Position numbers and translations under genes: made by a program | The notes under the pieces: generated by a model | Told to the model about the DNA's origin: nothing | The model's database searches: none | The model's input: the letters and a program-made list of their open reading frames with translations, nothing else | Assembly (NCBI GenBank): GCA_902492995.1 | Contig: CABUNR010000004.1 | Coordinates: 1-61,261, forward strand | Direction: 5' to 3' | Origin: an uncultured Bacillota bacterium | Lineage (GTDB): Bacteria; Bacillota_I; Bacilli_A; RF39; UBA660 | Length of the DNA: 61,261 bases | In this document: positions 896 to 40,039 of the stretch, piece by piece | Position numbering within the stretch: position 1 is the stretch's first letter | How the letters are laid out: the number at the start of each line of letters is the position of its first letter

Positions 896-3272
896 ATGCT
901 TAAGAAAAAAATGATACGTGATATACGACAAAATTTATCTCAATTTATTACAATATTTTTGATGGTACTTATTGGAGTAATGGTTTATGTTGGTATTGAA
1001 GCATATATGGATGGAATGATAAATACCGCTGATAAATTTTACAAAGAAAATAATTTGGAAGATTTAAATGTTATTGGAGAATTAAACAATGATGATTTAG
1101 AAAAAATAAAAAAAATAAATCATGTTAAGAATGCAGAAGAGAAACTTGTTGTATCAGGCATAGACGCAACTGATAAAAATAAGTCATACTTAATCAGTTT
1201 TATAAATTCTAATAATATTTCAGAATTTTATATAATTGATGGAGAAAAATTTGATGCTTCAAAAAAAGGAGTATGGGTAGATAATTTTTATGCAGAAAAA
1301 AACAATTTAAAAGTTGGAGATACATTAAAAATTAAATATGAAAAAAATATATTAGAAGAAAAAATTCTAGGTTTAATTAATGTACCAGATCACATTTATG
1401 ATTTGAAAGATGAATCTGAACTTGTGCCAAATAGAAAAAATTTTGGATTTATTTATTTATCTATGAATGAAATTCCAAAAGATTATATAGAAGAATTAAT
1501 TGCTAAAAAAATGAATGTAGAAAAAGATAGTTTAAGTAGTATAATACCTAATTATGATTATAAAAATTATATTATATATAATTATATAATGGTTGATATT
1601 GTTAATAAAGAAAATACTAAAAATGTTAAAGAAAAAATAGAAAAAGAAATAGAAGATGCAAGTTTAATAGTAAAAGCTGAAGATACTTTGTCATATTTAA
1701 GATATCAAGGTGAAATAGATGAAGGAGCATCATACGTTGGAATATTTTCTGGGTTATTCTTATTTATTGCAATGCTTTCTGTAATTACAACAATGACAAG
1801 AGTAATTAAAAGACAAAAAATTCAAATTGGTACTATGAAAGCACTTGGTATAAGTAAGAGAAAAATAATTATGCATTATATTGGATACGGATTTTTCGTT
1901 TCATTAATTGCATCAATATTTGGAATGTTACTTGGAAGATTTTTTATAGGTGAAATTTTCTTAAATTTAGAGATGAGCTATTTTGAAATACCTAATGGAG
2001 TTCCAGTTATTGCAGGTAAAAGCTATATAGTTTCTTTAATGGTAGTTTTAATAGTTTCATTTATAACTTATTTAACATGTAGAAAAGAACTTTTAAAAAA
2101 GCCAGCAGAAGCACTTAGAAATGATGTTCCTAATGTTAAGATTAAAAATCTTAATTTATCAACCAAAGGAATATTTAAAAAATTAAGTTTTAAAAGCAAA
2201 TGGAATTTTAGAGATATACTTAGAAATAAATTTAGAACATTAACGGCCGTAGTTGGAATAGTAGGATGTTGTATGCTTATTGTATGTGCTTTTGGAATGC
2301 TAAATAGTATGAATCATTTTGTAAAACTTCAATATAGTGATTTATATAATTTTAATTATAAATTAACACTAAAAGAAAATTTAAATGATGAAGAGATTAA
2401 TACATTAGTTGATAAATATGGTAATTCAACTAGTGAAACATTATCTATAGAAATACAAAATAAAAATGAAAAAGAGACAAATACAATATTTGTAACAGAT
2501 GCTAAAGATCTAGTAAAATTTCAAAATCAAAAAGGAAAATATATTAATATTGATAATAATGATGGAGTCTATGTAACAAGAAAACTTGCAAAAGAAAAAA
2601 AATATAAAGTAGGAGATACTATAAAATGGCATGTTTATGGTGTAGATAAATACTTTGAATCTAAAATTGTAGGGTTTACAAAAGATCCACAAGTTCAAAA
2701 TTTAACAATGACAAAAAAATACTTAGAAAGTTTAAATATAACATATAACATATAAACCAGATGCTTTATATACAAATGAAAATTTAAAAAGTGTAAAAAG
2801 TATAGATGGCGTTAGTGTAGTTCAAGATATAAAAGAACTAGAGGATAGTATGGAATCAATGCTTTCTATGCTAAAAAGTATGATTATGCTTATAATTGTA
2901 TTTGCAATAGGGCTTGGAGCAGTAATTATATATAATATGGGCATATTATCATATAGTGAAAAACAATATCAATTTTCAACATTAAAAGTATTAGGATTTA
3001 GTGATTCTAAAATAAAGAAAATTTTTATTGAACAAAATATATGGATTACAATTGTATCTATAATAATTGGAATGCCAATGGGATATTATTTAACATCATA
3101 TATATTTAAAAAAGTTATTGCGGATAATTATGATTTTAATGCTTATATTAAATTAAGTACATATCTAATTGCTGCAATAGGTACATATGTAGTGTCATTT
3201 ATTGTATCTAAATTGTTAGCAAAGAAAATAAATAAAATAGATATGGTATCTAGTTTAAAAGCAAATGAATAA
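896..3272 (+). pseudogene. FtsX/MacB-family ABC permease, frameshifted by a 7-bp tandem duplication
   Basis: ORF fragments 896-2755 and 2850-3272 (true reading resumes about 2755 in another frame). ACATATA is duplicated at 2741-2747 and 2748-2754. Removing one copy gives a continuous ...LNITYKPDALYTNENLKSVKSIDGVSVVQDIKELEDSMESML... FtsX-type permease with two 4-TM FtsX domains. Confidence 0.8.
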
Positions 3273-5929: not shown

Positions 5930-5956
5930 AAACACATCTAAAAGATGTGTTTTTAT
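5930..5956. terminator. Bidirectional terminator hairpin shared by tRNA-Arg (+) and the endonuclease gene (-)
   Basis: AAACACATC (5930-5938) / GATGTGTTT (5944-5952), flanked by an A-run on one side and a T-run on the other. Confidence 0.7.
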
Positions 5957-6732
5957 TTATATATTTGTAAATCACATAAATCATGATTGTATGTGTAAAT
6001 TTTATTAAATAATTTTTCAATGTTTTCTTTTTTGATTTTAAATAATAAATTTTTGTTTTTATATTTTCCTATATCATTACCACTTTTACCAATTCTTGCA
6101 ATTAAACAAACATCTATAACTCCCTTATTTAAGAGTTCTAAAAATGTATCGAAAGTTTTTAATTTATATAAAGATAGTTCATAATATCTAAAATATTCAT
6201 TATTATTTAAAACTTTTTTACTTGCTTTAACATAAGCTAATGTATTAAACTTTGTAAAAAGATGTGTTTTTATTGTATCAAGATAAATAAATGATTTCTT
6301 TTCAATTAATTTGTTGTTTAAATTATAAACACAAAGAAATATTTTTTCTTCTTTTTTATCAATTTCTAGTTTAAAACTATAATTGTTATTTAAGATTGTT
6401 TTAGTTACACAATTAATATTTGTATTTAAAACTTTTTTATCTTTAAATACTTTATCATAATATCCATACTTTTGTATAATTCGGTTTATTTCTGGAAAAG
6501 TAGGTCCATCAAATGCAACAGAAAATAAACTTAATGGGTATCTACTAAATCTTGTTGAACATTTTATTTCTATACCATAATAATCAGGAAAAAACATTGA
6601 ATCTGCTTTTTTACCCAGTTCATGTTCAAACGTTAGCCCAATATTTCCTAGACTTTTTGATTTTCCTTCTATCCATCCTTTGTTTGCTATTTTTTTAAAT
6701 TTTTCAATAAATTTTTTTGTTTCTTCATTCAT
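5953..6732 (-). CDS. MvaI/BcnI-family type II restriction endonuclease-like protein (solitary)
   Basis: N-terminal block GNIGLTFEHELGKKADSMFFPDYYGIEIKCSTRFSRYPLSLFSVAFDGP fits the family pattern G..G.t.E..LG...N...PD..GiElK..r....ltLF as I recall it. The C-terminal GVIDVCLIARIGKSG...NLLFKIKKENIEKLF resembles the BcnI C-terminus. No methyltransferase is adjacent. Confidence 0.6.
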   Translation of the reverse strand: MNEETKKFIEKFKKIANKGWIEGKSKSLGNIGLTFEHELGKKADSMFFPDYYGIEIKCSTRFSRYPLSLFSVAFDGPTFPEINRIIQKYGYYDKVFKDKKVLNTNINCVTKTILNNNYSFKLEIDKKEEKIFLCVYNLNNKLIEKKSFIYLDTIKTHLFTKFNTLAYVKASKKVLNNNEYFRYYELSLYKLKTFDTFLELLNKGVIDVCLIARIGKSGNDIGKYKNKNLLFKIKKENIEKLFNKIYTYNHDLCDLQIYK

Positions 6733-6874
6733 ATTTAATCACCAATTTGATAATAACATTTAAAAGTATTATATTCAAATCGCTAAATTGTTATAATATT
6801 TATTTTATTTTGATAAAAATTTGATTTGTCTCTTTAAAAAAAAGAAATATTTAATTATATGATAAAACAAAAAA

Positions 6875-6902
6875 AGTAAAATTGATGAATTTTACTTTTT
6901 TT
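6875..6902. terminator. Terminator hairpin ending the minus-strand tRNA cluster
   Basis: AGTAAAATT (6875-6883) / AATTTTACT (6888-6896), a 9-bp stem with a GATG loop and A/T runs on both sides. Confidence 0.65.
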
Positions 6903-6955
6903 AATTTTTTATATTAGAACTATATTTAACCGGACGGTTGTAGGTTTAATAAAAG

Positions 6956-7029
6956 TGGTGCCGAGTGTAGGAATCGAACCTACGTCTAATCATTACGAGG
7001 GATTTGTTTTACCATTAAACTAAATCGGC
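6956..7029 (-). tRNA. tRNA-Thr (anticodon CGT)
   Basis: Sense strand GCCGATT TA GTTT AATGGTA AAAC A AATCC CTCGTAA TGATT AGAC GTAGG TTCGATT CCTAC ACTCGGC ACCA. There is one acceptor mismatch (6:67) and a 31:39 mismatch. Confidence 0.8.
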
Positions 7030-7032
7030 CCA

Positions 7033-7106
7033 TGGCTGTCCCAGTTAGATTCGAACTAACGATAATAGAGTCAGAGTCTATTGCCTTACCACTTGGCCAT
7101 GGGACA
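7033..7106 (-). tRNA. tRNA-Gln (anticodon CTG)
   Basis: Sense strand TGTCCCA TG GCCAAGTGGTAAGGC A ATAGA CTCTGAC TCTAT TATC GTTAG TTCGAAT CTAAC TGGGACA GCCA. The U1-A72 pair is typical of bacterial tRNA-Gln. Confidence 0.85.
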
Positions 7107-7146
7107 ATAAAATAAAAACTCGGCAACCGAGCTTAAATTTTTTTAA

Positions 7147-7231
7147 TGGTGCAGGTGAAGGGACTTGAACCCCCATGTCGTAAGACACTAGATCCTAAGT
7201 CTAGCGCGTCTGCCAATTTCGCCACACCTGC
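7147..7231 (-). tRNA. tRNA-Leu (anticodon TAG), long variable arm
   Basis: Sense strand GCAGGTGTGGCGAAATTGGCAGACGCG CTAGA CTTAGGA TCTAG TGTCTTACGACAT GGGGGTTCAAGTCCC TTCACCTGCACCA. It is 85 nt, class II. Confidence 0.9.
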
Positions 7232-7242
7232 AATTAAAAAAA

Positions 7243-7319
7243 TGGTGGACCTTGTAGGACTCGAACCTACGACCGTTCGGTTATGAGCCGAATGCTCTGA
7301 CCAACTGAGCTAAAGGTCC
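7243..7319 (-). tRNA. tRNA with CAT anticodon, most likely tRNA-Ile2 (lysidine) rather than Met
   Basis: Sense strand GGACCTTTAGCTCAGTTGGTCAGAGC A TTCGG CTCATAA CCGAA CGGTC GTAGG TTCGAGT CCTAC AAGGTCC ACCA. The GGACC.../...GGTCC acceptor matches my recollection of Bacillus tRNA-Ile(CAU). Confidence 0.75.
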
Positions 7320-7402
7320 GTACACATTACTAACTAATAATATCATATAAAAAATAATTTTGCAAGATATATTTAAAAAAAATTCTAAAAAATAAAAATT
7401 AT

Positions 7403-7432
7403 TTGAATATATACTTTTGGATATGTTATAAT
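7403..7432 (+). promoter_or_regulatory. Sigma-A-type promoter for cysS (TTGAAT-18-TATAAT)
   Basis: -35 at 7403-7408 and -10 at 7427-7432, about 20 nt upstream of the cysS start. Confidence 0.5.
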
Positions 7433-7450
7433 TAATTAGGATGTGATTTT

Positions 7451-8851
7451 ATGAAAATATATAATACTTTAACAAGAAAGGTAGAAGAATTTGTCCCTAA
7501 TAATAAAGAATGTGTTACTATGTATACATGTGGCCCTACAGTATATCATTATGCTCATATAGGTAATCTTAGAACATATATTTTTGAAGATATTTTGGAA
7601 AAAACATTAAATTATATTGGATATAATGTAAAAAGATGTATGAATATAACTGATGTTGGACATTTAACAAGCGATTCAGATAGTGGTGAAGATAAAATGC
7701 TAAAAGGAGCAAAAAGAGAACATAAAAGTGTTTTAGAGATTGCTCAATTTTACACTGATGAATTTAAACGTGATATTGAAAAACTAAATATAAAATGGCC
7801 AGAAATTGTATCAAAAGCAACTGATAATATTGATATGTATATAAAAATTGTAAAAAAGTTGCTCGATGATAATTATGCATATATAAGTGGCGGAAATGTT
7901 TATTTTGATACTTCTAAATTGTTAGATTATTATAAACTTACAAATCATAAAGTAGATGATATGGTTATTGGTGTAAGAGATGGAGTTGAAGAAGATTTAA
8001 GCAAAAAAAATCAAGCTGATTTTGTGTTATGGTTTACAAAATCAAAATTTGATTCTCAAGAACTTAAATGGGATAGTCCTTGGGGAATTGGATATCCTGG
8101 TTGGCATATTGAATGTTCAGGAATAAGTATAAAAAATTTAGGTGAATATTTAGATATACATTGTGGCGGAATAGATAATATTTTCCCACATCATACAAAT
8201 GAAATAGCTCAATCAGAAAGTTATCTAGGTCATAAATGGTGTAATTATTGGGTTCATGGAGAACATTTAAATGATGAAACTGGAAAGATGAGTAAATCAA
8301 AAGGTGAGTTTTTAACTCTCTCACTTCTAGAAAATAAAGGTTATAGTCCAATTGATTATAGATTTATGTGTTTAAATTCTTCATATAGAAAAGTATTAGT
8401 TTTTAGTTATGAAGCATTAAATCAAGCACATGATTCATATCAAAAACTTAAATCAAAAGTAAAAAAATTAAACAGGAATAATAATGAAAAACTAGAAAAT
8501 GATAAAATACTTGAATACAAAAAAAGATTTTGTGATGCATTAGAAAGTGATTTAAATACTTCACTTGCATTAACCGTTATATATGATTTATTAAAAGAAA
8601 AAATAAATGATTCAACTAAACTTTATTTGATATACGACTTTGATAAAGTATTATCACTTGATTTATTAAAAGAAGAAGAAAAAAAAATAGATGATGAACT
8701 TTTAAAACATATTAATGAAATGATTGTAAAAAGAGCCGAAGCAAAGAAAAATAAAGATTATAACTTAGCCGATAGTATAAGAAATGACCTAGAAAAGAAA
8801 GGTATTATTCTTAAAGATACAAAAGAAGGAACTATATATGAGATAAAATAG
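7451..8851 (+). CDS. cysS: Cysteine--tRNA ligase
   Basis: Class I motifs HIGN (YAHIGNLR) and KMSKS. Typical CysRS N-terminus MKIYNTLTRKVEEF. Confidence 0.95.
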   Translation: MKIYNTLTRKVEEFVPNNKECVTMYTCGPTVYHYAHIGNLRTYIFEDILEKTLNYIGYNVKRCMNITDVGHLTSDSDSGEDKMLKGAKREHKSVLEIAQFYTDEFKRDIEKLNIKWPEIVSKATDNIDMYIKIVKKLLDDNYAYISGGNVYFDTSKLLDYYKLTNHKVDDMVIGVRDGVEEDLSKKNQADFVLWFTKSKFDSQELKWDSPWGIGYPGWHIECSGISIKNLGEYLDIHCGGIDNIFPHHTNEIAQSESYLGHKWCNYWVHGEHLNDETGKMSKSKGEFLTLSLLENKGYSPIDYRFMCLNSSYRKVLVFSYEALNQAHDSYQKLKSKVKKLNRNNNEKLENDKILEYKKRFCDALESDLNTSLALTVIYDLLKEKINDSTKLYLIYDFDKVLSLDLLKEEEKKIDDELLKHINEMIVKRAEAKKNKDYNLADSIRNDLEKKGIILKDTKEGTIYEIK

Positions 8852-15109: not shown

Positions 15110-16381
15110 ATGGATTACAGAACAATAAAAAATAAAAATTATAATTTACATATAATAAATACTGATAAATTCAAAACGATAAATTTAATGATTAATTTTA
15201 AAAGAAAAATAAAAAAAGAGGAAATAACAATAAGAAATTTGTTAAATGATATTTTAATAAATACTAGTATGAATTATAAAACTTCTAGAGATATTGAAAT
15301 AGAAACTGAAGAGTTATATGATTTAGGTATTAGTTCTAATCCACACAAATCAGGCAATTATCATATTATTTCTTTTAAAGAATCATTTTTAAATGAAAAA
15401 TATACTGAAGATGGTATGAATTTAAAATCTATGCAATTTTTATTAGAACTTATATTTAATGCTAATGTTAGTGATAATAAGTTTGATAAAAAATATTTTG
15501 AATTAATAAAGAGAACAATTGAAGATGATATAAAAAGTTTAAAAGACGATACTAAAAAATATAGTCTTATTAGACTATATGAAGAAATGGATAGTGGACC
15601 ACTTTCGTATAGAACTGCTGGTTATTTAGAAGATTTAGATAAAATAACTGAAACTAATTTATATGATTATTATAAATCTGTGATAGAAAATGACATTATA
15701 GATATCTTTGTGATTGGAAATATAAATGATACATATGAACAACTATTTAATAAATATATACCTGATACTATAAGAATAAAGGATAGCACTCCTCATTATC
15801 TTAATTTAGAAATAAATGATGAACAGGAAAAAAGAGAATTAACTAAAATAAATCAGAGTAAATTATCGATTGGTTTAAAAATTAAAGATATAACGGATTA
15901 TGAATTAAAATATGTAGTTAGCTTATATTCTCTTATTTTAGGTGGAAGTTCTAATTCAAAATTATTTAAAGTAGTAAGGGAAGAAAATTCACTTTGTTAT
16001 TATATAAATTCTAGTGTTTCAGTTATCTCAAAAATTATAACAATAATGGCTGGTATTAACTCTAAAGATTATGAGCAAACTATGAAATTAATAAGAAATG
16101 AATTAAATAATATTAAAGAAGGAAATTTTAGCGATTCAGATATAAAAGAGGCAAAAAAAATATATACTAGTGGTTGTAAAGAAATTTATGATTCACCAGG
16201 ATCTATTATTAATAACTATTTATCTTATGAGTATGCTAATCTAGATTTAGCTATTGATAGAATAAATAATATAAAAAATGTTACAAAAGAAGAAATTGTT
16301 GCATTAGCAAATAAAGTAGTAATTGATACAATATTTTTATTAGAAGGGACAGGTTCTGATGAAGAAGCAAACATTATGTGA
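15110..16381 (+). CDS. M16-family (pitrilysin-like) peptidase subunit lacking the HxxEH motif (probably non-catalytic partner)
   Basis: About 420 aa with insulinase-like architecture and no HxxEH. Overlaps the next M16 gene by 23 nt. Confidence 0.65.
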   Translation: MDYRTIKNKNYNLHIINTDKFKTINLMINFKRKIKKEEITIRNLLNDILINTSMNYKTSRDIEIETEELYDLGISSNPHKSGNYHIISFKESFLNEKYTEDGMNLKSMQFLLELIFNANVSDNKFDKKYFELIKRTIEDDIKSLKDDTKKYSLIRLYEEMDSGPLSYRTAGYLEDLDKITETNLYDYYKSVIENDIIDIFVIGNINDTYEQLFNKYIPDTIRIKDSTPHYLNLEINDEQEKRELTKINQSKLSIGLKIKDITDYELKYVVSLYSLILGGSSNSKLFKVVREENSLCYYINSSVSVISKIITIMAGINSKDYEQTMKLIRNELNNIKEGNFSDSDIKEAKKIYTSGCKEIYDSPGSIINNYLSYEYANLDLAIDRINNIKNVTKEEIVALANKVVIDTIFLLEGTGSDEEANIM

Positions 16382-17649: not shown

Positions 17650-17674
17650 AAATAGTTGAAAAACTATTTTTTTT
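17650..17674 (+). terminator. Rho-independent terminator
   Basis: AAATAGTT (17650-17657) / AACTATTT (17662-17669), GAAA loop, T-run. Confidence 0.7.
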
Positions 17675-17740
17675 GTTGTATCATTTATATATGATAAAAC
17701 GATAGTAAGGATGTGTAATATGGTAACTAAATGCAAAACC

Positions 17741-17749
17741 GGGGGGGGG
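17741..17749 (+). repeat. G9 homopolymer in codons 4-6 of the giant pilin gene (candidate slipped-strand phase-variation tract)
   Basis: The read is ...atgcaaaacc gggggggggt...: nine consecutive G in a strongly AT-rich genome, placed between two alternative ATG starts and the pilin leader. Confidence 0.8.
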
Positions 17750-19150
17750 TATTTTTAAGAAATACCAATAAAAAAGGACTAACATTAATAGAACTTTTAG
17801 CGGTAATAGTAATACTAGCTATAATAGCTTTAATCGCAACACCAATTGTAACAAATATAATAAATGATGCAAGAAAAGAAGCCGCAAAAGATAGTACATA
17901 TGAATATGTAAAAGCTATAGAAAATAAAATTGCATTATCTGCATTAGAAGATAGGACATACGAAGATAAAGATGATTATGCATATGATGAGATAAAACCA
18001 GATATAAAATGGACTATCCCAATAGGAGGAATATATAGTTTAAAAAATGGAATAATAACAGAAGGAAAATTTTGTGTAAACAATTATTTATTAAATTATA
18101 AAGAATCCAAGATTAAAGTAGAAGGAACATGTACAAATGAAACATTAAGATTAGATGGAAGTTTAAAACTATCAAGTAATAGTGGGAATTATACATATCC
18201 AGAGGTTGGAACAATAGATATAATAGAAAACAAGGGAAATGGAAAACTAAGTTGTGAATCAAGTGATACTAAGGTTGCGACTTGTTTAGTTAAAGGAAAT
18301 ACAGTAACAGTAAAATCAGGAACAAAAGAAGGAAGTGCAACACTAACAATAACAAGTGAAGCAACAAGTAAATATAAAGAAGCCAAAGCAGCATACTTAG
18401 CTTACACATCAAAAGGATTATTAAGTATAACAGCTAATGGATATAATGGAATATATGACAATAAAGCTCACGGAATAACAGTAAGTACAGGACAAAATGC
18501 AACAGTAAAATATGGTGAAGAAGAAGGGACATATGATAAAGATGAGAGTCCAACTTACACTGATGTAGGAAGTTATACAGTATATTATGAAGTAAGCCAA
18601 GAAGGATATAATACGGTAAGAGGAAGTAAAACAGTAGTAATAACAAAAGCAGATGGAGAGATAACATTAAAAGAGTCAAGTATAAGTATTGCATATAAAG
18701 ATACAAAAGAAATTGATGTTACAAAAAATATAAGTGACGGAAATATAAAAGTAGAAGTACTAAATAAAGATATAGTAGAAGCAGAAATAAAAGATAATAA
18801 AATAGTAATAACAGGAAAAAAACTAGGAACAGGGAAGGTAAAAATAATAAGTGAAGCAACAAGAAACTATAAAGAAAGTAGTACAGAAATAGAAGTAACA
18901 GTAATAAAAGCAAATAATACATTAAAGTTACCAAGTACAAGTGGAAAATATACATATCCAGAAAGTAAAACAATAGAAGTAGAAGGAAACATAAGTGGAG
19001 GATTAATTAAATGTGTATCAGCAGACACTAAAATAGCTAATTGTACAGTAAATGGAAATATAATAACAGTAAAATCAGGAACAAAAGAAGGAAGTACAAC
19101 ATTAACAATAACAAGTTAAGCAACAGAAAATTATAATGAACAAAAATTAT

Positions 19151-19333
19151 CATATGTAGCAATTACAGCTAAAGGAACATTAAGAAGTTATACAGTAGCT
19201 GGATATAATGGTGTATATGACTCTAAAGGACATGGAATCGTAGTAACAAGTTCAGGTTCAACAATAACATATTCAAAAGATGGAACAAACTATACAAATG
19301 AAAATCCAAAATATACAGATGTAGGAGAATACA
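19151..19333 (+). repeat. 183-nt perfect direct repeat, copy 1 (partner at 20117-20299)
   Basis: Base-by-base comparison of the two stretches shows identity over 183 nt. Similarity continues with scattered mismatches to about 19380 / 20346. Confidence 0.9.
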
Positions 19334-20116
19334 CAGTATACTATAAAATCGAAACAGAAGGATATAATGAAATAACAGGAAATGCAAGAGTTGTTATAAC
19401 AAAAGCAGAAGGTGAAATGACATCACCAACAGCAAAAACCCTAACTTATACAGAAAGTGAACAAGAATTAATAAATAGAGGAAGCTCAAGTACAGGAACA
19501 ATAGAATATAAACTAGATAATGGAAGTTATAGTGAAAGTATTCCAAAAGCAACAAATCCAGGAACATATAAAGTATATTATAGATTAGTAGGAGATAAGA
19601 ATCATAAAGATATAGCAGAAAGTTATATAACAGTAACAATAAATAAAGCTGTATTAAGTTATACAGCAAATGGATATACAGGAGTATATGATTCTAATTC
19701 TCATGGAATTGTTGTAACAAGTAAAGGAACAATAAAATATGGTGAGGCAGAAGGAACATATGATAAAGATGAAAGTCCAAAATATGCAGATGTCGGAAAA
19801 TATGTAGTATACTTTAAAATAACAAGAGAAGGATACTATGATATAACAGGAAGTAAAACAATAGAAATAACAAAAGCAAATAATAATATAAAATTATCAA
19901 GTACAAGTGGAAAATATACATATCCAGAGGTTGGAACATTTAAGGTAATAGAAAATCCAAGCAAAGAACAATTATATTGTGAAAGTTCAGATACAAAAGT
20001 AGCGACATGTAAGTTTAAAGAAAATATAATAACAGTAACACCAGGAACAAAAGAAGGAAGTACAACATTAACAATATCAACAAAAGGAAGTAAGAACTAT
20101 AATGCAGGAAAAGCAG

Positions 20117-20299
20117 CATATGTAGCAATTACAGCTAAAGGAACATTAAGAAGTTATACAGTAGCTGGATATAATGGTGTATATGACTCTAAAGGACATG
20201 GAATCGTAGTAACAAGTTCAGGTTCAACAATAACATATTCAAAAGATGGAACAAACTATACAAATGAAAATCCAAAATATACAGATGTAGGAGAATACA
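20117..20299 (+). repeat. 183-nt perfect direct repeat, copy 2 (966 bp downstream of copy 1, in frame)
   Basis: Identical to 19151-19333. The offset of 966 bp equals 322 codons. Confidence 0.9.
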
Positions 20300-22329
20300 T
20301 AGTATATTATAAAATCGAAACAGAAGGATATAATGATATAACAGGAACTGCAAAAGTAGTAATAACAAAAGCAGCTGGAACTGTAGTGGCTCCAACATCA
20401 AAGACATTAACATATACAGGGACATCACAAACTCTAATAAATAGAGGAAGTTCAAGTACAGGATCAATAAGATATAAATTAAATGATGGAAGTTATAGTG
20501 AGAATTTACCACAAGCAACGAATGCTGGAACATATACTGTTTACTATAAAGTGGTAGGAGATAGTAATCATAAAGACGTAGCAGAAAATTCTATTAAAGT
20601 AACAATAGAAAAAGCAACAGGACAAGTAACAGCGCCAACAGCAAAAAACCTAGCATATACAGGAAGTGCACAAACTTTAATAAATGCAGGAAGCTCAAGT
20701 ACAGGAACAATACAGTATAAATTAGATAATGGAAGTTATTCAACGACACTTCCAAAGGCAACAAATCCAGGAACATATAAAGTTTATTATAAAGTAGTAG
20801 GAGATAGTAATCATAAAGATGTAGCAGAATCAAGTATAAATGTAACAATAGATAAAGCAGTAAATTTAATAAAACTATCAAGTAATGTAGGGACATATAC
20901 ATATCCAAAAAGTGGAACATTTGAAGTAACAAGTAATCCAAGTGGAGGAGCATTAAGCTGTATATCAAGTAATACAAATGTAGCTACTTGTTCAGTAAGT
21001 GGCTCAAAAATAACAGTAACACCTGGAACAAAAGAAGGAACTGCAACATTAACAATAAAAAGTGCAGAAACAGCAAATTATAAAGCAGGACAAGCAGCCT
21101 ATGTAGCAACAACAGAAAAAGGATTATTAAGTGTAACAGTAAATGGATATAATAAAGCATATGATGGAGCATCACATGGAATCGTAGTAACAAGTAGTGG
21201 CGCAACAATAAAATATGGTGCGACAGAAGGAACATACGATAAAGATGAAAGTCCAACTTATAAAGATGTAGGTGAATATACAGTATATTATCAAGTAACA
21301 AAAGCTGGATATAAAACAGTAACAGGAAGTGAAAAAGTAGTTATAACAAAAGCCAATGGAAAAGTAACGGCACCAACTGCTAAAACCCTAACTTATACAG
21401 GAACAGCCCAAACATTAATAAATGCTGGAAGTTCAAGTACAGGAACAATTGAGTATAAATTAGAAAGTGGAAGTTATTCAACAAGTTTACCACAAGCAAC
21501 GAATGCTGGAACATATAAGGTTTACTATAAAGTAATAGGAGATAAGAACCATTTTGATGTATCAGAAAACTCAATAAATGTAACAATAGGAAAGAAAGTA
21601 GATACAATTACAGTAACAGCAAAAACATATATATATGATGAAAATGCAAAAACAGCAAGCTTCAAAACAACAAGTGGCTTAACACCAAGTGCGACATATT
21701 ATAGTGAGGCAAGTTGTACAACAACAGTAAGTAGTCCAACTGATGCAGGAGTATACTATGCAAGAGCAACTACTATAGGAAATAGTAATTATAGTGCAGG
21801 AAGTTTAAGTTGTACAAAAGCTATAACAATAAATAAAGCAGGAAATACATTACTATTATCAAGTAATAAAGGAACATATACATATCCAAATAGTGGAACA
21901 TTTACAGTAACAAAAAATATAAGTGGAGGAGCATTAAGCTGTTCATCAAGTAATACAAATGTAGCTACTTGTTCAGTATCAGGAAGTACAATAACAGTAA
22001 AACCAGGAACAACTAAAGGAACAGCAAATATAACAGTAACAAGTGCATCAACAACAAATTATAATTCACAAACATCAACTCATGTAGCAACAACAGAGGA
22101 AGGATTACTAAGTGTAACAGCAAGTGGATATACAGGAGATTATGACTCTAAAGAACATGGAATTGTAGTAACAAGCTCTGGCTCAACAATAAAATATGGA
22201 ACAAGTGAAGGAACATATAACTTAGATTCAAGTCCAAAATATAAAAATTTAGGAACATATACAGTATATTATCAAGTAACTAGGCTTGGATATAAAACAA
22301 TTACAGGAAGTAAACAAGTTATAATAAAA

Positions 22330-23109
22330 GATTTATCTGCACCTAGTACACCAACTATTACAAATCCAACAAATGGAAATTGGACAAATAAAGATTTTAG
22401 TTTAACAGTATCTTCAAGTGATAATGTAGGAATTGCATATTATCAATATAGTTATGATAATTCAAACTGGACAACATATGCTAATTCAGCAGCAACTACA
22501 TATGTAACAACAGCGTTTAGTATAGAAAGAAATCAATTAGTTTATATAAGAGCGTGTGATAGTGCTTTAAATTGTTCAAGTTCATCATCAACTTATATAA
22601 GAATTGATAAAACAGCTCCAACTGTGCCATCACTTACTGGAACAAATACAAGTTGGACAAATCAAAATATAAATGTTAAGCCATCATCAACTGATTCGGG
22701 TTCTGGAGTAAATCATTATGAATCATATTATAGTGGTTCATGGCATAATTATCTATCTAATGATTATTTTACTAGTGAAAGAAACGAGACAGTTTATTTT
22801 AGAGCATGTGATAATGCTGGAAATTGTTCTGGAAATGCTTCGACTGAAATTCATATTGACAAAACAGCTCCAACTAAACCAACATTATCAGGAACAAATG
22901 AAAATTGGACAAATCAAAATGTAAATGTTAGACCATCATCAATTGATTCAGGTTCAGGCGTTGATCATTATGATGCATATTATAGTGGTTCATGGCATAA
23001 TTATCCGTCTAATGATTATTTTAATAGTGAAAGAAATGAACTTGTATATTTTAGAGCATGCGATAAAGCTGGTAATTGCTCTGAATCATCATCAACATAT
23101 ATAAGAATT
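22330..23109 (+). repeat. Three tandem coding repeats (276 + 252 + 252 bp) encoding DKTAP/NWTN...YFRACD..GNCS modules
   Basis: Unit boundaries fall at 22330, 22606, 22858 and 23110 (GAT/GAC AAA AC. .C. CC. motif). Units 2 and 3 are clearly similar at the DNA level. Confidence 0.8.
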
Positions 23110-23714
23110 GATAAAACTACACCTTCAATATCAATAAACACGAAAGCTTTTTATAATCAAAACTTATCAATATATTCTGTATCATACGGAAAAAGTGGTG
23201 GAGCAACAACTTGTATTAATCAAAGTGATGGAAATAAGACAGTATCAAATGTAAATAATTTAGGAAGTTTGGGTTCACATAAAATTACGTGTACGGCAAC
23301 AAGTAATTCTGGAATGAAAGCAACAGCAACAACAAATTTAGTAATTAATGGAATGTTTTCCTATGGAACAGGACTAAGCTTTATAAGCCCAGCTTATGCA
23401 AGTGGTAGCAGTATTATAATTCCACAAGGTGGAATTCAGTATGGCCCATATATTCCGGTGTTACCAGGCTGCTATCAGATTTGGTACAATGGTAATGCTT
23501 TAAATGCAAGTAAAGATGTTTATAAGGCATATAGTGGAGCCGGTGCTGGACCACATTACTCATTAATTAATCAAAATTATATATCTGAAAATTCTAATTA
23601 TTATTTACAATTTAATTCATCAGTTTCTGATTTAGAAACAACAATTTATAATAATACTGCATCAATAATAACAGTCAGGGATGTAAATATATGGTATATT
23701 GGTACTTCATGTTA

Positions 23715-23745
23715 AAAATAGTGTAAATTACGCTATTTTTATTTT
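23715..23745 (+). terminator. Rho-independent terminator after the giant pilin gene
   Basis: AAAATAGTG / CGCTATTTT stem (one G-U pair) followed by a T-rich run. Confidence 0.6.
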
Positions 23746-23804: not shown

Positions 23805-24224
23805 ATGAAAAAAAATGGTTTTACACTAATAGAGCTTTTAGCAGTTTTAACAGTACTTGGATTAATTTCATTAGTAACAGTATCTACAATAACTGGAACA
23901 TTAAAATCATATAAAAATACATTATATGAAAATCAAATTAATAATATAGAAGCTGCAGCAAGATTATGGGCATCTGATAATATGTTAAAATTACCAAATG
24001 ATGATTCATCAACTGAAGTTTGTGAATACGTAAATTATAATAATTGCTCAGATAATTATTATAAGCTAGTTATTACTCTTTCTGAACTTCAAAAAGGTGG
24101 ATATCTTGATACAGATTTAAAAAATGCTAAAACAAAAAAAACATTTGAAAATATAAATATAAATATTATAAAAAAAGGTAAAAAAATTATCTATGAAGTA
24201 AATGATACAGAAAATGAAAGTTAA
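23805..24224 (+). CDS. Type IV pilin / ComGC-like pseudopilin (prepilin N-terminal cleavage/methylation domain)
   Basis: MKKNG|FTLIELLAVLTVLGLISLV: a canonical class III signal with Gly-1, Phe+1 and Glu+5. 139 aa, with its own promoter-like TTGCTA-17-TATTAT upstream. Confidence 0.85.
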   Translation: MKKNGFTLIELLAVLTVLGLISLVTVSTITGTLKSYKNTLYENQINNIEAAARLWASDNMLKLPNDDSSTEVCEYVNYNNCSDNYYKLVITLSELQKGGYLDTDLKNAKTKKTFENININIIKKGKKIIYEVNDTENES

Positions 24225-37099: not shown

Positions 37100-37128
37100 T
37101 TGAAAAGAAAAAGACAATTTGATATAAT
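37100..37128 (+). promoter_or_regulatory. Near-consensus sigma-A promoter (TTGAAA-17-TGaTATAAT) driving the large ncRNA
   Basis: -35 at 37100-37105, exact 17-nt spacer, extended -10 TGATATAAT at 37120-37128. The predicted TSS is near G37135. Confidence 0.75.
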
Positions 37129-37134
37129 ATCTTT

Positions 37135-37717
37135 GATGGCACATTATTCTAGTCATTAAATTTACTATGAAGGTGGGGCTAAAAATCCACTAAAGGGCAC
37201 ATCTGTGAAACTTCTTGTGCTTGCTTCTTACGCCCAGTTCGGGGTGAGTGCTGGGAGGTTAGGATATTGGGCAACCGTAATGGCATACGTTATTGACCCA
37301 ATATCTGTGGAGACCTAAACTTGTTATAAGCCTATACACAACAGTTGACGGACTTATGACGATTTAGGATTAAACCTACTATGTGGGGAAACTTACGAGT
37401 AGCGTAGCTTGTCTTGAGTGAATATAGGGAATTATTGATCAGATTCTTATCTTTGGCCAAAGGTATGGATTATTGCATTATGAAACTATATTTGCAAAAG
37501 AGAATTAATAGTAAATAGATGGTGGGGAAATCTTCTAGAATGTATTTTAATATGGGATTGCGGTGCGTACTAAGTGGCAATCAAGTCATATATTTGGTGA
37601 CGATATATTTGTATTTTTAAAGGGGAACCGCAAGTTTGGTAACGAACTGTAAATACAAGAGAAATTCAACTTGACCTAAGACGCAAAGTTTACTATTTTA
37701 AATGCCATCTTTTTTTT
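37135..37717 (+). ncRNA. Large (~583 nt) structured non-coding RNA candidate. OLE-like genomic layout; family unverified
   Basis: No ORF of 60 aa or more on either strand. About 37 % G+C by hand count over 37141-37680, versus very AT-rich intergenic DNA elsewhere. The 5' GAUGGCA (37135-41) pairs with UGCCAUC (37703-09), which is followed by U8. Many local helices are visible, for example 37263-71/37297-305 (9 bp), 37314-19/37363-68, 37326-32/37350-57, 37376-80/37398-402, 37556-61/37577-82 and 37608-16/37651-59. Confidence 0.7.
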
Positions 37718-37723
37718 ATTTAG

Positions 37724-38320
37724 GTGATTAAATTGAGAAAGAGTAAGTTAGAATTAATTAATTTAAAAGTACAAACAAGAAGAAAAGAATTAAAACATAA
37801 AGAAAAAGTAGATAAGGTATGGGTTATTAAAATTATATTAATTTCATTTGTAGTAGCATTAGTATTTGCTTTTGTATCAGAAACTATTATTCCTAATGTA
37901 AATTTAATATTTGGAATTGTTCTTCTTATTTTGGTAATAACTTTAGGGGTAATATTTGATATGATAGGAGTTGCTGTTACTGCAGCAGATATAGTTCCTT
38001 TTAATTCGATGGCATCAAGAAAAGTTAAAGGAGCTAAAATTGCTATTAAATTAAAACAAAATGCTGATAAAGTTTCTTCCTTTTGTAATGATGTTTTTGG
38101 TGATATATGTGGTGTAATTTCAGGATCAATTGGTGTAATTATATCTAGTTCTTTATCAAAAGTTATAAATATTAATAGTTTATATATATCACTATTAGTT
38201 ACGGCAGTAATTGCATCTATAACAATAGGAGCTAAAGCACTTTGTAAAAGTTTTGCTATTAATAAATCAAATATAATACTATATAAATCTTCAAAATTTA
38301 TTAATATATTTTATAAATAA
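37724..38320 (+). CDS. Small 4-TM membrane protein with a highly basic N-terminus (possible OapA-like partner of the upstream RNA)
   Basis: N-terminus IKLRKSKLELINLKVQTRRKELKHKEK, then four hydrophobic segments with intramembrane acidic motifs IFDMIGVA and NDVFGDICGV. The SD TAGGTGA lies 5 nt after the RNA U-tract. The start is GTG 37724 or, better spaced, TTG 37733. Confidence 0.6.
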   Translation: MIKLRKSKLELINLKVQTRRKELKHKEKVDKVWVIKIILISFVVALVFAFVSETIIPNVNLIFGIVLLILVITLGVIFDMIGVAVTAADIVPFNSMASRKVKGAKIAIKLKQNADKVSSFCNDVFGDICGVISGSIGVIISSSLSKVININSLYISLLVTAVIASITIGAKALCKSFAINKSNIILYKSSKFINIFYK

Positions 38321-38380: not shown

Positions 38381-40039
38381 GTGAAAGATAATAATATAAA
38401 TAGTGAAGATTTAGAAGAAAAAAAAGATAATGAAGTTGTAACTGATCAAGAAGATAATAGCTCTACAGAAGAATTAGACAACATAAAAATAGAAGAGTTG
38501 GCAGATGATAATGTAGATGATGACATTTCAAAAGAGAAAAAAGAAACTACAGAAAAGGATATTTCAAAAGAAGAAAAAGAAATTACAGAAAATGATATTT
38601 CTAATGAAGAAGAAAATAATCAAGTTATAAATGATGACATTTCAAAAGACTTTTCTATTAAGAAAAAAAATAAATCAGTAATTATTATAGCAATTATCGC
38701 TATTTTGGTACTTGCTTTATGCTTATTATATAAGTTTATATATAATCCTAAAAAATTATTTATTAAATCAATTAATAAACAATATACAGAAGTTGAAAAT
38801 TATTTATATGATTTAATTAAAGAAACATCAAATAAAAAAGCTATGACTATTTCAAATAATTTAGAATTTAATGTAAAAGTTGATAAAAGTATATCAAATA
38901 ATAGTACTAATTCATTAATTGATGAAATAAATAAATTAAAATTAAATTCTGAAGTTGGATATGATAAGAAAAACAAACAAATGCTAATAAATGTAAATGC
39001 GTTATATGAAAAAGATTCTATAATAAATTTAATAACATATGTAAAAGATAAAAATCTATATTTAGAACTTAAAGATTTATTTGATAAATATATAATTGTT
39101 CCTGTGGATGATTATAACTCATATTTTAAAAATACAATATCAGAAAGTGATATAAAATATATTTTAAAGAAAACAAAAGATGTTTATATAAATAATTTAG
39201 ATGAAAAGAATTTTAAAAAGAGTAATGGAACAATAAAAATTGATGGAAAAGATACAAAAGTTAGTAAAATAAGTTATGAAATATCACAAAAAGAAGCTTA
39301 TATTTTAGGAGAAAATATTTTAAAAGAATTAAAAAATGATTCAAAATATATTGAGGCATTAGCAACTATTTCTAATGAGGATAAAGAAACAATAAAAAAA
39401 TCAATGAAAAAAGGAATAGAATCATTACAAAAAGATATTTCTTCAAAAGAGTTTGATAGCAAAAATAGAATATCATTTGTTACTTATGTAAAAGGAATTA
39501 CAAATAAATCAGTTGGATATGAAGTATTAGTAAATGGTAGTGATAATGTTAAAATTTCTTATACAAAAGGTGATAATAACACTATAAAGGTAGTAATGAA
39601 TAATGAAGAAATTTTAAATGCACAAATTTATAATGATAAAATTAAAATGTCTATAAATGTAGAAGATAAAAAAATTACTTTTGACATATCAAAGAAAGTT
39701 AATGGTAAAAAAACAACTTATGATTATGATTTAAATATATCTGGAATGAGTGTTACTGGAAATATAATAATAGATATGAAAAAGGAAAATAAAGATGGAT
39801 CATATGAGGCAGAAGTTGATGTAAATGCTAATGTTATGGGATTAGTTAAATTAAATGTTAAAAATACATCAAAAGCTGTAATAACTGATGAATTGAAGCT
39901 TCCAGATTTATCAAATAGTATTAATTATGAAAAATTGACTGATGATGATATTAATAATATTAAATCAAAATTGTATGAAAATAAAGCAATTAAAACATTA
40001 ATTGAAAAATTTAGTAAAAGTGAAGTAGGTTTATATTAA
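38381..40039 (+). CDS. Hypothetical single-pass membrane protein with an acidic repeat-containing N-terminal tail
   Basis: N-terminal 100 aa are rich in D/E/K with reiterated DISKE-type units, followed by one TM (VIIIAIIAILVLALCLL) and a ~430-aa extracytoplasmic part. No family was recognised. Confidence 0.55.
   Translation: MKDNNINSEDLEEKKDNEVVTDQEDNSSTEELDNIKIEELADDNVDDDISKEKKETTEKDISKEEKEITENDISNEEENNQVINDDISKDFSIKKKNKSVIIIAIIAILVLALCLLYKFIYNPKKLFIKSINKQYTEVENYLYDLIKETSNKKAMTISNNLEFNVKVDKSISNNSTNSLIDEINKLKLNSEVGYDKKNKQMLINVNALYEKDSIINLITYVKDKNLYLELKDLFDKYIIVPVDDYNSYFKNTISESDIKYILKKTKDVYINNLDEKNFKKSNGTIKIDGKDTKVSKISYEISQKEAYILGENILKELKNDSKYIEALATISNEDKETIKKSMKKGIESLQKDISSKEFDSKNRISFVTYVKGITNKSVGYEVLVNGSDNVKISYTKGDNNTIKVVMNNEEILNAQIYNDKIKMSINVEDKKITFDISKKVNGKKTTYDYDLNISGMSVTGNIIIDMKKENKDGSYEAEVDVNANVMGLVKLNVKNTSKAVITDELKLPDLSNSINYEKLTDDDINNIKSKLYENKAIKTLIEKFSKSEVGLY

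Follow-up and report, generated by a model that had tools for sequence, protein, structure and literature searches.

Among the described systems closest to the gene analysed here are modular pilins, a recently recognised route to new type IV pilus functions, and homopolymeric contingency loci, which are best known from Neisseria, Campylobacter and mycoplasmas. In Neisseria, pilC carries a G(9–20) tract within its reading frame (PMC5953494). The modular pilins surveyed by Raynaud et al. in 2021 comprise more than 1,200 proteins in 264 architectures, the most extreme multi-domain example having 860 residues and 12 repeat motifs (PMC8179133). Here, we analyse a giant type IV pilin gene at 17731–23715 on the + strand of contig CABUNR010000004.1 from an uncultured gut bacterium; the contig is 61,261 nucleotides (nt) long and is hereafter called the window. 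The gene likely belongs to a family of phase-variable, giant, pilus-displayed adhesin-pilins, and this member appears to be inactivated or truncated in the present strain. The pilin of about 2,000 amino acids (aa) is probably not made by this strain, because a nonsense codon follows after 462 residues and the start codon linked to a Shine-Dalgarno sequence is out of frame at a tract of nine guanines (G9). The most that the window copy would yield is a pilin truncated at 462 aa, whose ATG, at 17731, is badly positioned. No directly relevant work turned up when the literature was searched for giant pilins or for pili of RF39-type lineages; as far as the searches went, homopolymeric G-tract contingency has not been described for pilins or for these uncultured human-gut bacteria.

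The window corresponds in full to one scaffold of a short-read metagenome assembly (ENA ERZ28658892, XIEH16-1, scaffold_397). By its RpoB it groups with gut Bacilli that are uncultured, low in GC and in many cases labelled Tenericutes or Mollicutes, with the best identity (86%) to a metagenome-assembled genome (MAG) from the Hadza and 78%–79% identity to Firmicutes bacterium CAG:822 and Ca. Coprosoma. Closed MAGs of this lineage are about 1.5 Mb in size, and sporulation genes are present in the window.

Architecture of the giant pilin gene

The giant-pilin frame spans 1,994 codons and has one internal stop, versus 229 and 242 stops in the other two frames. Since the sole in-frame stop lies at codon 463 and none occurs again until 23713, we read it as one coding frame with one lesion. 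A first-pass annotation of this DNA had described a continuous open reading frame (ORF) of about 2,000 codons, which is in fact interrupted by a TAA at 19117–19119 and divided into 462 aa and 1,531 stop-free codons. The ORF list under the bacterial code gives 17731–19119 (462 aa) and 19417–23715 (1,432 aa), and the gene callers on the ENA record likewise divide the frame into products of 462 and 1,432 aa. This calls for caution in annotation: the two "hypothetical" ORFs are a single broken gene, and Pfam is blind to nearly all of its modules. The features of the locus, all on the + strand, are as follows.

17656–17684, + strand: promoter-like site TTGAAA / 17-nt spacer / TATCAT, which scored highest on the + strand when scanned (10 of 12 positions matched; a consensus match only)
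17707–17722, + strand: Shine-Dalgarno sequence AAGGA (17707–17711) and the ATG served by it (17720–17722), at a spacing of 8 nt
17731–17778, + strand: called start and 16-residue leader peptide MQNRGGVFLRNTNKKG, ending with Gly at −1 (translation)
17741–17749, + strand: G9 homopolymer in the leader-coding sequence (codons 4–7), a candidate slipped-strand phase-variation tract (run scan)
17779–18147, + strand: pilin module with α1 helix (Glu+5, Pro+22) and small β-sheet head with the Cys115/Cys134 pair (hidden Markov models, alignment, AlphaFold)
18148–19116, + strand: modules A1, B1 and A′ plus the initial ~70 residues belonging to A2, all upstream of the stop (repeat delineation)
19117–19119, + strand: in-frame TAA nonsense codon (codon 463) within module A2 (translation, allele comparison)
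19120–22329, + strand: remainder of A2, then B2, C1, B3, A3, B4, C2, C3, A4, B5, C4, C′, A5 and B6, the Ig-like stalk (stop-free translation, repeat delineation)
22330–23109, + strand: D1–D3, three OmpL47-type β-barrel repeats, DKTAP...YFRACD.AGNCS (NCBIfam NF047446)
23110–23715, + strand: module E (~77 aa, with a weak likeness to Big_13), a C-terminal tip domain of 124 aa that is unique, and the TAA stop (repeat delineation)
23805–24224, + strand: small 139-aa type IV pilin (N_methyl 27.3 bits, TIGR02532 29.8 bits, N-terminal similarity to GspG/ComGC)

The N-terminus of the giant pilin has a predicted cleavage site between KKG and LTLIE, with Glu at +5. It matches N_methyl (PF07963) at 29.7 bits (cut-off 21.2) and TIGR02532 at 28 bits (cut-off 16.3), which bears out the class III signal and the hydrophobic pilin helix recognised in the first-pass annotation. 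Alignment of 41 family members revealed that G16 (−1), T18, L19, E21 (+5), P38 (+22) and C134 are invariant, and that F17 and C115 are conserved in at least 90% of the members; the giant pilin itself has Leu at +1, where Phe is the usual residue. In the AlphaFold model of residues 1–320, with a mean predicted local distance difference test (pLDDT) score of 88.3, a 54-residue α1 helix (residues 19–72) and strands within residues 80–133 are followed by two β-sandwich modules. The modelled pilin-head region (pLDDT ~86–93) displays the lollipop fold, which is defined by an α1 of about 53 residues packed on an antiparallel β-sheet. In the PDB, a head-only profile picked up type IV pilins and pseudopilins and nothing else: the matches include geopilin, PilE1 of S. 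sanguinis (8pfb, 1.5e-8), MshA, PAK pilin and GspG, and 9egp was matched at 4e-9. Foldseek with the 1–320 model returned no pilin matches, the results being dominated by the two Ig-like modules.

Repeat delineation resolved the frame into the head (aa 17–139), five A modules plus a divergent A′, six B modules, four C modules plus a divergent C′, three D modules, module E and the tip. The inventory drawn up in the first-pass annotation was accurate: about 21 Ig-like modules, the three D repeats included, follow the head, and a unique terminal domain of 124 aa ends the frame. Modules A1 and B1 are modelled as β-sandwiches with pLDDT above 90, and the best Foldseek matches of these two first modules are tandem Ig-like arrays, namely those of the Sap S-layer protein (8s80), SraP (4m00), cadherins and titin. 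Against Big_2 (PF02368), A1 scores 20.3 bits, below the gathering cut-off of 22.8; the A modules, earlier called Big_2-like, are thus Ig-like by structure but not members of the Pfam family. The B and C modules form a single module family. Neither gave an MBG match (PF18676/PF18887) in the Pfam scan, and their joint profile weakly overlaps the MBG_3-annotated segment of the relative P0195 (independent E-value 5e-6) and misses the MBG_2 segment of P0153. The label "MBG/YGX-like" once given to the C modules therefore survives as a distant link to MBG_3 and not as one to MBG_2/YGX; module C also has weak matches to Invasin_D3 and CopC.

The three DKTAP...YFRACD..GNCS repeats reported before are all present and are of the OmpL47 type: NF047446 matches at 66.2 bits (cut-off 40) in three stretches within aa 1534–1793, and at the DNA level the D modules are direct repeats with a 252-nt period. 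Identical repeats of at least 90 nt also occur inside the gene, for instance at 19161–19250 and 20127–20216. Relatives of module E and the tip are P0121/P0122 (the window's downstream ORF and the near-identical allele at locus L008) and the 762-aa pilin P0008 (43%–47% identity) only. The tip domain, in the first-pass annotation a possible lectin- or CBM-like tip, has no Pfam match and only chance-level hits in a PDB sequence search, and an AlphaFold model of aa 1710–1994 from a 6-row alignment was unusable (pLDDT 36.6). Both the window's reading frame and its intact relatives combine a pilin module and extra modules in one polypeptide, as in modular pilins; the 462-aa product still bears three and a half extra modules.

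A family of giant pilins and the pilus machinery of the lineage

At E ≤ 1e-10, the head family comprises 1,355 clusters (50% identity). In the best 150 of the listed family matches the head is N-terminal, and the proteins range from about 90 to more than 1,300 aa. Among the retrieved proteins with a class III motif, 58 have at least 1,000 aa and six at least 1,500 aa, the maximum being 1,958 aa; a tally of retrieved relatives with at least 900 aa that retain the motif gives 57, with the same maximum. In L292, the allele of a paralogous locus is intact and encodes 1,232 aa. The 462-aa product used alone as a genome query found no close relative in species-representative genomes, an alignment-based search being required. 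The first-pass annotation had allowed that pilin and repeat parts might be separate genes in relatives, where they are in fact one gene. Of its giant stalked pilin, the family with a pilin head and long Ig-like stalks is thus genuine, whereas the window copy is cut after 462 residues.

Several paralogues are present per MAG, dispersed among housekeeping genes. At L003 10001–10867, a 288-aa pilin (P0007) is about 96% identical to the window head, continues with A1 and ends in a short, different C-terminal tail; it is located after uvrA, in a genomic context other than that of the window gene. P0007 is evidence for a putative cassette-like shuffling of stalks and tips on the same head. In relatives, the giant pilin genes are each followed by a conserved gene for a 125–131-aa lipoprotein with the lipobox L[IV]TGC (L004 12368–12745; L090 14800–15195; L091 13606–13989; L009 14761–15153; L292 12964–13356), and these lipoproteins share 53%–94% identity with that of L009. 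A homologue of this lipoprotein gene is absent from the window, where the small pilin occupies its position.

The first-pass annotation had noted a small pilin at 23805–24224 and no assembly ATPase, platform protein or prepilin peptidase in the window, and both statements hold: the 61 kb contain no pilus machinery (no A24 peptidase), the two pilins being the only pilus-related genes. The small pilin is orthologous to one beside the holA/PilB-type ATPase cluster of several relatives: it is 38% identical (E = 8e-21) to the syntenic copy of L314, the closest relative by RpoB, and syntenic small pilins are also found in L298, L319 and L320. It is a candidate for an ordinary, possibly the major, pilin of the same filament system. 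The PilB-type ATPase is 67%–91% identical in 80 MAG loci of the lineage, including that of the closest RpoB relative and those of many MAGs with pilin paralogues. It is usually flanked by two small pilin-like genes, and a candidate A24 peptidase stands beside it in 19 of the 80 loci. In L322 the neighbours of the ATPase are A24_N_bact (107 bits), Peptidase_A24 (51 bits), T2SSF (172 bits) and minor pilins; a prepilin peptidase, whose absence the first-pass annotation had named as a reason to doubt processing, is thus present in relatives within the lineage. In L292, a single contig encodes both the GspE/PilB-type ATPase and the intact paralogue of 1,232 aa, 3.6 kb apart.

The filament genes form a compact cluster of two divergent small pilin-like genes and a GspE/PilB-type ATPase gene (L322 6884–12359; L314 6862–10879; L292 16511–20358), adjoined in some MAGs by the A24 prepilin peptidase and a 630-aa T2SSF protein and in others by holA. 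In L348, one "minor pilin" is a 594-aa pilin with an ALK/LTK glycine-rich domain. An ATPase-like ORF next to the L124 pilin gene, considered as PilB, proved to be FtsK.

The head may not serve polymerisation. Archaeal solute-binding proteins with class III signals use the prepilin N-terminus as an export and anchor device. By analogy, the giant pilin may be a wall-spanning adhesin in which the class III signal and α1 act only as export signal and membrane anchor, the stalk crossing the wall. The scattered paralogues could point to such anchoring rather than to polymerisation: many occur in one genome, every one equipped with a promoter or poly-G tract of its own, amid housekeeping genes and not in pil operons. 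The lengths are continuous from about 115 to 1,958 aa, and the small lipoprotein gene after several giant pilin genes suggests a membrane-proximal partner. However, the head keeps all hallmarks of filament assembly (E+5, P+22 and a full-length α1), the lineage has a highly conserved PilB-type ATPase, a platform protein and minor pilins, and the modular pilins PilB and PilC of S. sanguinis are incorporated in pili (PMC8179133). We thus regard a membrane-anchored, non-polymerising protein as unlikely, though it is the strongest of three alternatives, all of which (membrane anchoring, assembly artefact and read-through) are ranked below a phase-variable modular pilin.

The leader poly-G tract

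The G9 tract at 17741–17749, absent from the first-pass annotation, is the sole run of six or more G or C in the 61,261 nt (G frequency 0.162; estimated chance expectation ~0.005). Upstream of it, the site at 17656–17684 may act as the giant-pilin promoter; the stretch "tagttgaaaaa..ctattttttt..ttgtat(c/t)at" also precedes the homologous G9-leader pilin gene of L127, which is from another species. The equivalent of ATG-17720 is the in-frame start in the homologues L002, L009 and L292 (MVTKCK.../MVTKYK...). In the window with its G9, translation from ATG-17720 ends after 12 codons (peptide MVTKCKTGGGYF, then a stop), and ATG-17731 has no Shine-Dalgarno sequence at a normal distance (AAGGA being 19 nt away). 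Frame simulation showed that G10 or G7 puts ATG-17720 in frame, giving MVTKCKTGGGVFLRNTNKKG directly before LTLIE, a leader as long as that of tract-less homologues; at G9 or G12 ATG-17731 alone is in frame, and at G8 or G11 neither ATG is. At G9, the tract is thus one base short of the in-frame state linked to the Shine-Dalgarno sequence.

Long G or C runs are associated with pilin starts throughout the lineage. In the first-round loci (~241 kb), runs of at least 7 occur at three places only: the window leader G9, a G11 upstream of P0142 and the G10/G9 tract of L004/L005. P0142 is an intact 1,588-aa pilin from an NCBI MAG, and its G11 lies between TTGACA and TATGAT. In 79 further loci (865,532 nt with 109 pilin-like ORFs), 13 of 17 such runs fall within −150 to +75 of a pilin-like start, windows that make up 2.8% of the sequence (binomial P = 1.5e-17). 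All tracts at pilin starts are poly-G on the coding strand. The tract is located in the promoter spacer between the −35 and −10 boxes in L090, L110, L097 and L138, about 14 nt upstream of a TATAAT box in L108, L124 and L164, and inside the homologous leader in L127, where a G9 is encoded in MVANSNFGGGYLKNTNKKG preceding FTLIELL.

One-base variation of such a tract is seen at a poly-G locus other than that of the giant pilin. Two assemblies of one locus, L004 and L005, have G10 and G9, respectively, at 15650. This tract precedes by about 50 nt a gene whose product, of 271/267 aa, contains a Gp10_C domain as in phage baseplates (PF21939, 81.9 bits). The Gp10_C gene adds another kind of candidate for phase variation within the lineage.

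As in simple sequence repeat (SSR) contingency genes, a long homopolymer is found in the 5′ part of the ORF or in the promoter, where its length would shift the frame or the promoter spacing. Given that tract positions and lengths match those used to recognise SSR phase variation in Neisseria (PMC5953494), we favour a slipped-strand reading, in which the giant-pilin gene is probably phase-variable through length changes in G9.

The nonsense codon and its alleles

At the site of the TAA, other copies encode Glu: GAA at the paralogous position in module A1, GAG in the L002 allele, and GAA in the intact L292 allele, whose 21-nt context around codon 463 is otherwise identical to that of the window. 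Because other alleles and repeats read GAA or GAG, the TAA is a derived G>T nonsense change (GAA to TAA). It sits inside the Ig-like module A2, not at a module border. Relative to intact alleles the window copy thus has a premature stop with the frame otherwise kept, as expected of a nonsense-truncated allele or pseudogene. The same TAA is present in two further assemblies: L008, with the rimM/trmD context of the window, and L009, where the context is SecG/SpoIIP and the C-terminal region is another one. P0377, a fourth such product, ends at that residue as well. L002, a 91%-identical allele from another sample, lacks the TAA at codon 463 and has a G>T change of its own 94 codons further on (GGA to TGA, 1794–1796), after which its frame stays open to the contig end. 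As judged from these alleles, the TGA is a second, independent truncation of the same gene.

Comparison of the window with L009 revealed a mosaic. Synonymous divergence (dS) is 0.007 over codons ~380–1162, 0.12 before this tract and 0.086 after it, and the two genes are unrelated from codon 1534 on. Since the tract is near-identical while its flanks differ (dS ~0.09–0.12), the spread of the stop appears recent, and the shared stop is best explained by a putative transfer of the tract between paralogous loci through recombination or gene conversion. The notion that the stop is ancient and conserved, so that the downstream part must still be translated, was rejected on this mosaic dS pattern, which denotes recent spread. 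A reassigned or read-through TAA was also rejected: TAA is a normal stop that terminates 26 of 47 window genes and is the commonest, all three stop codons are in normal use, and GAA or GAG stands at this site in the intact alleles.

The TAA, perhaps along with the number of repeats or the length of G9, might instead stem from the short-read assembly of near-identical repeats and paralogues or from the consensus of a strain mixture, with an intact gene in the dominant strain. The scaffold is a short-read metagenome assembly, the gene contains repeats identical over 90 nt or more, the repeat number varies between alleles, L009 resembles a mosaic of two loci, and the window has a second broken gene (FtsX, 896–3272). 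Yet at least three samples, which were assembled independently and belong to different studies, have the identical TAA, the truncated P0377 agrees with it, L002 bears a different nonsense codon, and the change is a clean single-base substitution in an otherwise identical context. Moreover, a stop followed by at least 200 open in-frame codons was found in none of the 109 pilin-like ORFs in the 79 other lineage loci, so assemblers do not generally create such stops. An artefact is thus improbable.

Stop-codon read-through produces the coat extension of phage Q-beta. A functional two-product gene of this kind, whose main product is the 462-aa pilin and whose rare read-through form carries the stalk and tip, is very improbable: the stop tract does stand in three allele backgrounds with no second disabling mutation in 1,531–1,669 downstream codons, the dN/dS of the post-stop part against L008 is ~0.19–0.4, and L002 has its different stop 94 codons further on, but TAA is the strongest and commonest terminator in the window, no suppressor tRNA is encoded there, the stop lies within an Ig-like module, the GAA/GAG alleles share identical flanks so that no dedicated recoding signal is evident, and the near-identical tract between loci marks a recent event spread by recombination.

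A putative model and the evidence weighed against it

The preferred reading of a phase-variable, pilus-displayed adhesin-pilin enables us to propose a putative model for the intact form. The protein would be exported via its class III signal, and an A24 prepilin peptidase would cleave it behind Gly16. Its α1 helix would hold it in a type IV filament, most likely at the tip, the filament being built by the lineage's PilB/PilC-type machinery. The ~21-module Ig-like stalk, with the three OmpL47-type domains at its end, would then project the tip domain, so that the protein may serve as a pilus-displayed adhesin. Expression would be toggled by slipped-strand changes in the leader G9 tract.

More broadly, and more tentatively, these genes might form an adhesin-variation system on type IV filaments, a proposal to which we give somewhat less than an even chance. 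Dozens of paralogous "carrier" pilins would bear interchangeable stalks and tips of up to about 2,000 aa, shuffled by recombination and each switched by poly-G, and one conserved PilB/PilC/PilD machine would thereby present a changing repertoire of giant tip adhesins. The window copy would be a cassette that is switched off and hit by a nonsense mutation.

Several observations weigh against the phase-variable adhesin-pilin. Dozens of paralogues of unequal size amid housekeeping genes fit "one tip per pilus" less neatly. The adhesin role is inferred from domain types, and the tip domain lacks a recognisable fold. The machinery was found in relatives only, the window's own genome being seen over 61 kb. 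At G9, ATG-17731 is in frame, and the "OFF" call rests on Shine-Dalgarno spacing only. The G tract of the giant pilin is known from one assembly, the homologues having an interrupted tract or none, and both the TAA/GAA and the G-tract states come from assemblies, not reads. Finally, the 1,531 codons past the stop are free of a second lesion in three assemblies, which could hint at continued constraint. Two of the three stop-bearing assemblies differ downstream by 30 substitutions and a 122-aa indel; recombination with intact repeats would equally account for the lesion-free codons after the stop.

If the preferred reading is true, a pilin head carries stalks two to three times longer than the survey's 860-residue extreme, and giant-pilin genes expand to many paralogues in genomes of 1.5 Mb, tied to homopolymeric G tracts. 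Such proteins would be candidates for the means by which these uncultivated bacteria, living in association with a host, adhere to its cells or to those of partners and escape from immunity or phages. The broken copy lowers the value of this particular locus.

Other features of the window

A full-length OLE (ornate, large, extremophilic) RNA lies at 37120–37724 (+ strand; RF01071, 409.6 bits, model positions 1–616) and may be of interest in a lineage of gut Bacilli with small genomes. It is directly followed by an ORF for a 198-aa membrane protein (37724–38320, weak CNNM match) and by a 552-aa ORF with no Pfam match (38381–40039). An FtsX/MacB-type permease gene at 896–3272 (+ strand) is split into ORFs of 619 and 140 aa in different frames; the break near 2745–2760 adjoins a 7-nt tandem duplication (ATAACAT ATAACAT), and either this is another broken gene of the contig or the assembly is wrong here. 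An MvaI/BcnI-family restriction endonuclease gene (5953–6732, − strand; PF15515, 117 bits) lies near four tRNA genes (6956–7319, − strand). This minus-strand block coincides with a local collapse of the GC skew at 6001–8000, the remaining window being almost entirely plus-strand.

Comparison with known systems

Like PilB (vWA module) and PilC (lectin module) of S. sanguinis, the giant pilin has a class III signal and a small pilin carrier with C-terminal effector modules, a monoderm host and a predicted role in adhesion. Unlike the surveyed modular pilins, with their maximum of 860 residues and 12 motifs, it runs over 1,994 codons and some 21 modules in its frame, and relatives that are intact attain 1,588–1,958 aa; the scattered genes, many paralogues per genome, poly-G tracts and modules mostly invisible to Pfam set it further apart. 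CofB of the type IVb pili of enterotoxigenic E. coli is likewise a large minor pilin, with β-rich extra domains attached via a linker and a proposed place at the pilus tip (PMC8179133). However, CofB has two extra domains only, forms a trimer, is encoded in a pilus operon and shows no SSR phase variation.

In its putative switch, the locus resembles Neisseria PilC1/PilC2 and other SSR contingency loci, in which the gene for a pilus-associated adhesin has a poly-G tract of at least 9 in its promoter or in the 5′ part of its coding sequence. It shares with them the frameshift ON/OFF logic and the presence of several paralogues, here putatively of variable expression (PMC5953494; Jonsson et al. 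1991 cited there). In contrast, Neisseria PilC is not a pilin, and the present host is a very AT-rich, Gram-positive-type gut commensal; the two alternative ATGs at the giant-pilin locus moreover would give two ON phases out of three. The stalk is reminiscent of the tandem Ig-like β-sandwiches of SraP and Sap (Foldseek 4m00 and 8s80), and the D modules of the β-barrel repeats of Leptospira OmpL47 (NF047446). Proteins of the SraP, Sap and OmpL47 types have Sec signals with LPXTG, SLH or lipoprotein anchoring, whereas the giant pilin has a prepilin N-terminus. As a family, these genes go beyond described modular pilins in three respects: their range of sizes, their expansion into paralogues with mosaic recombination, and their association with poly-G.

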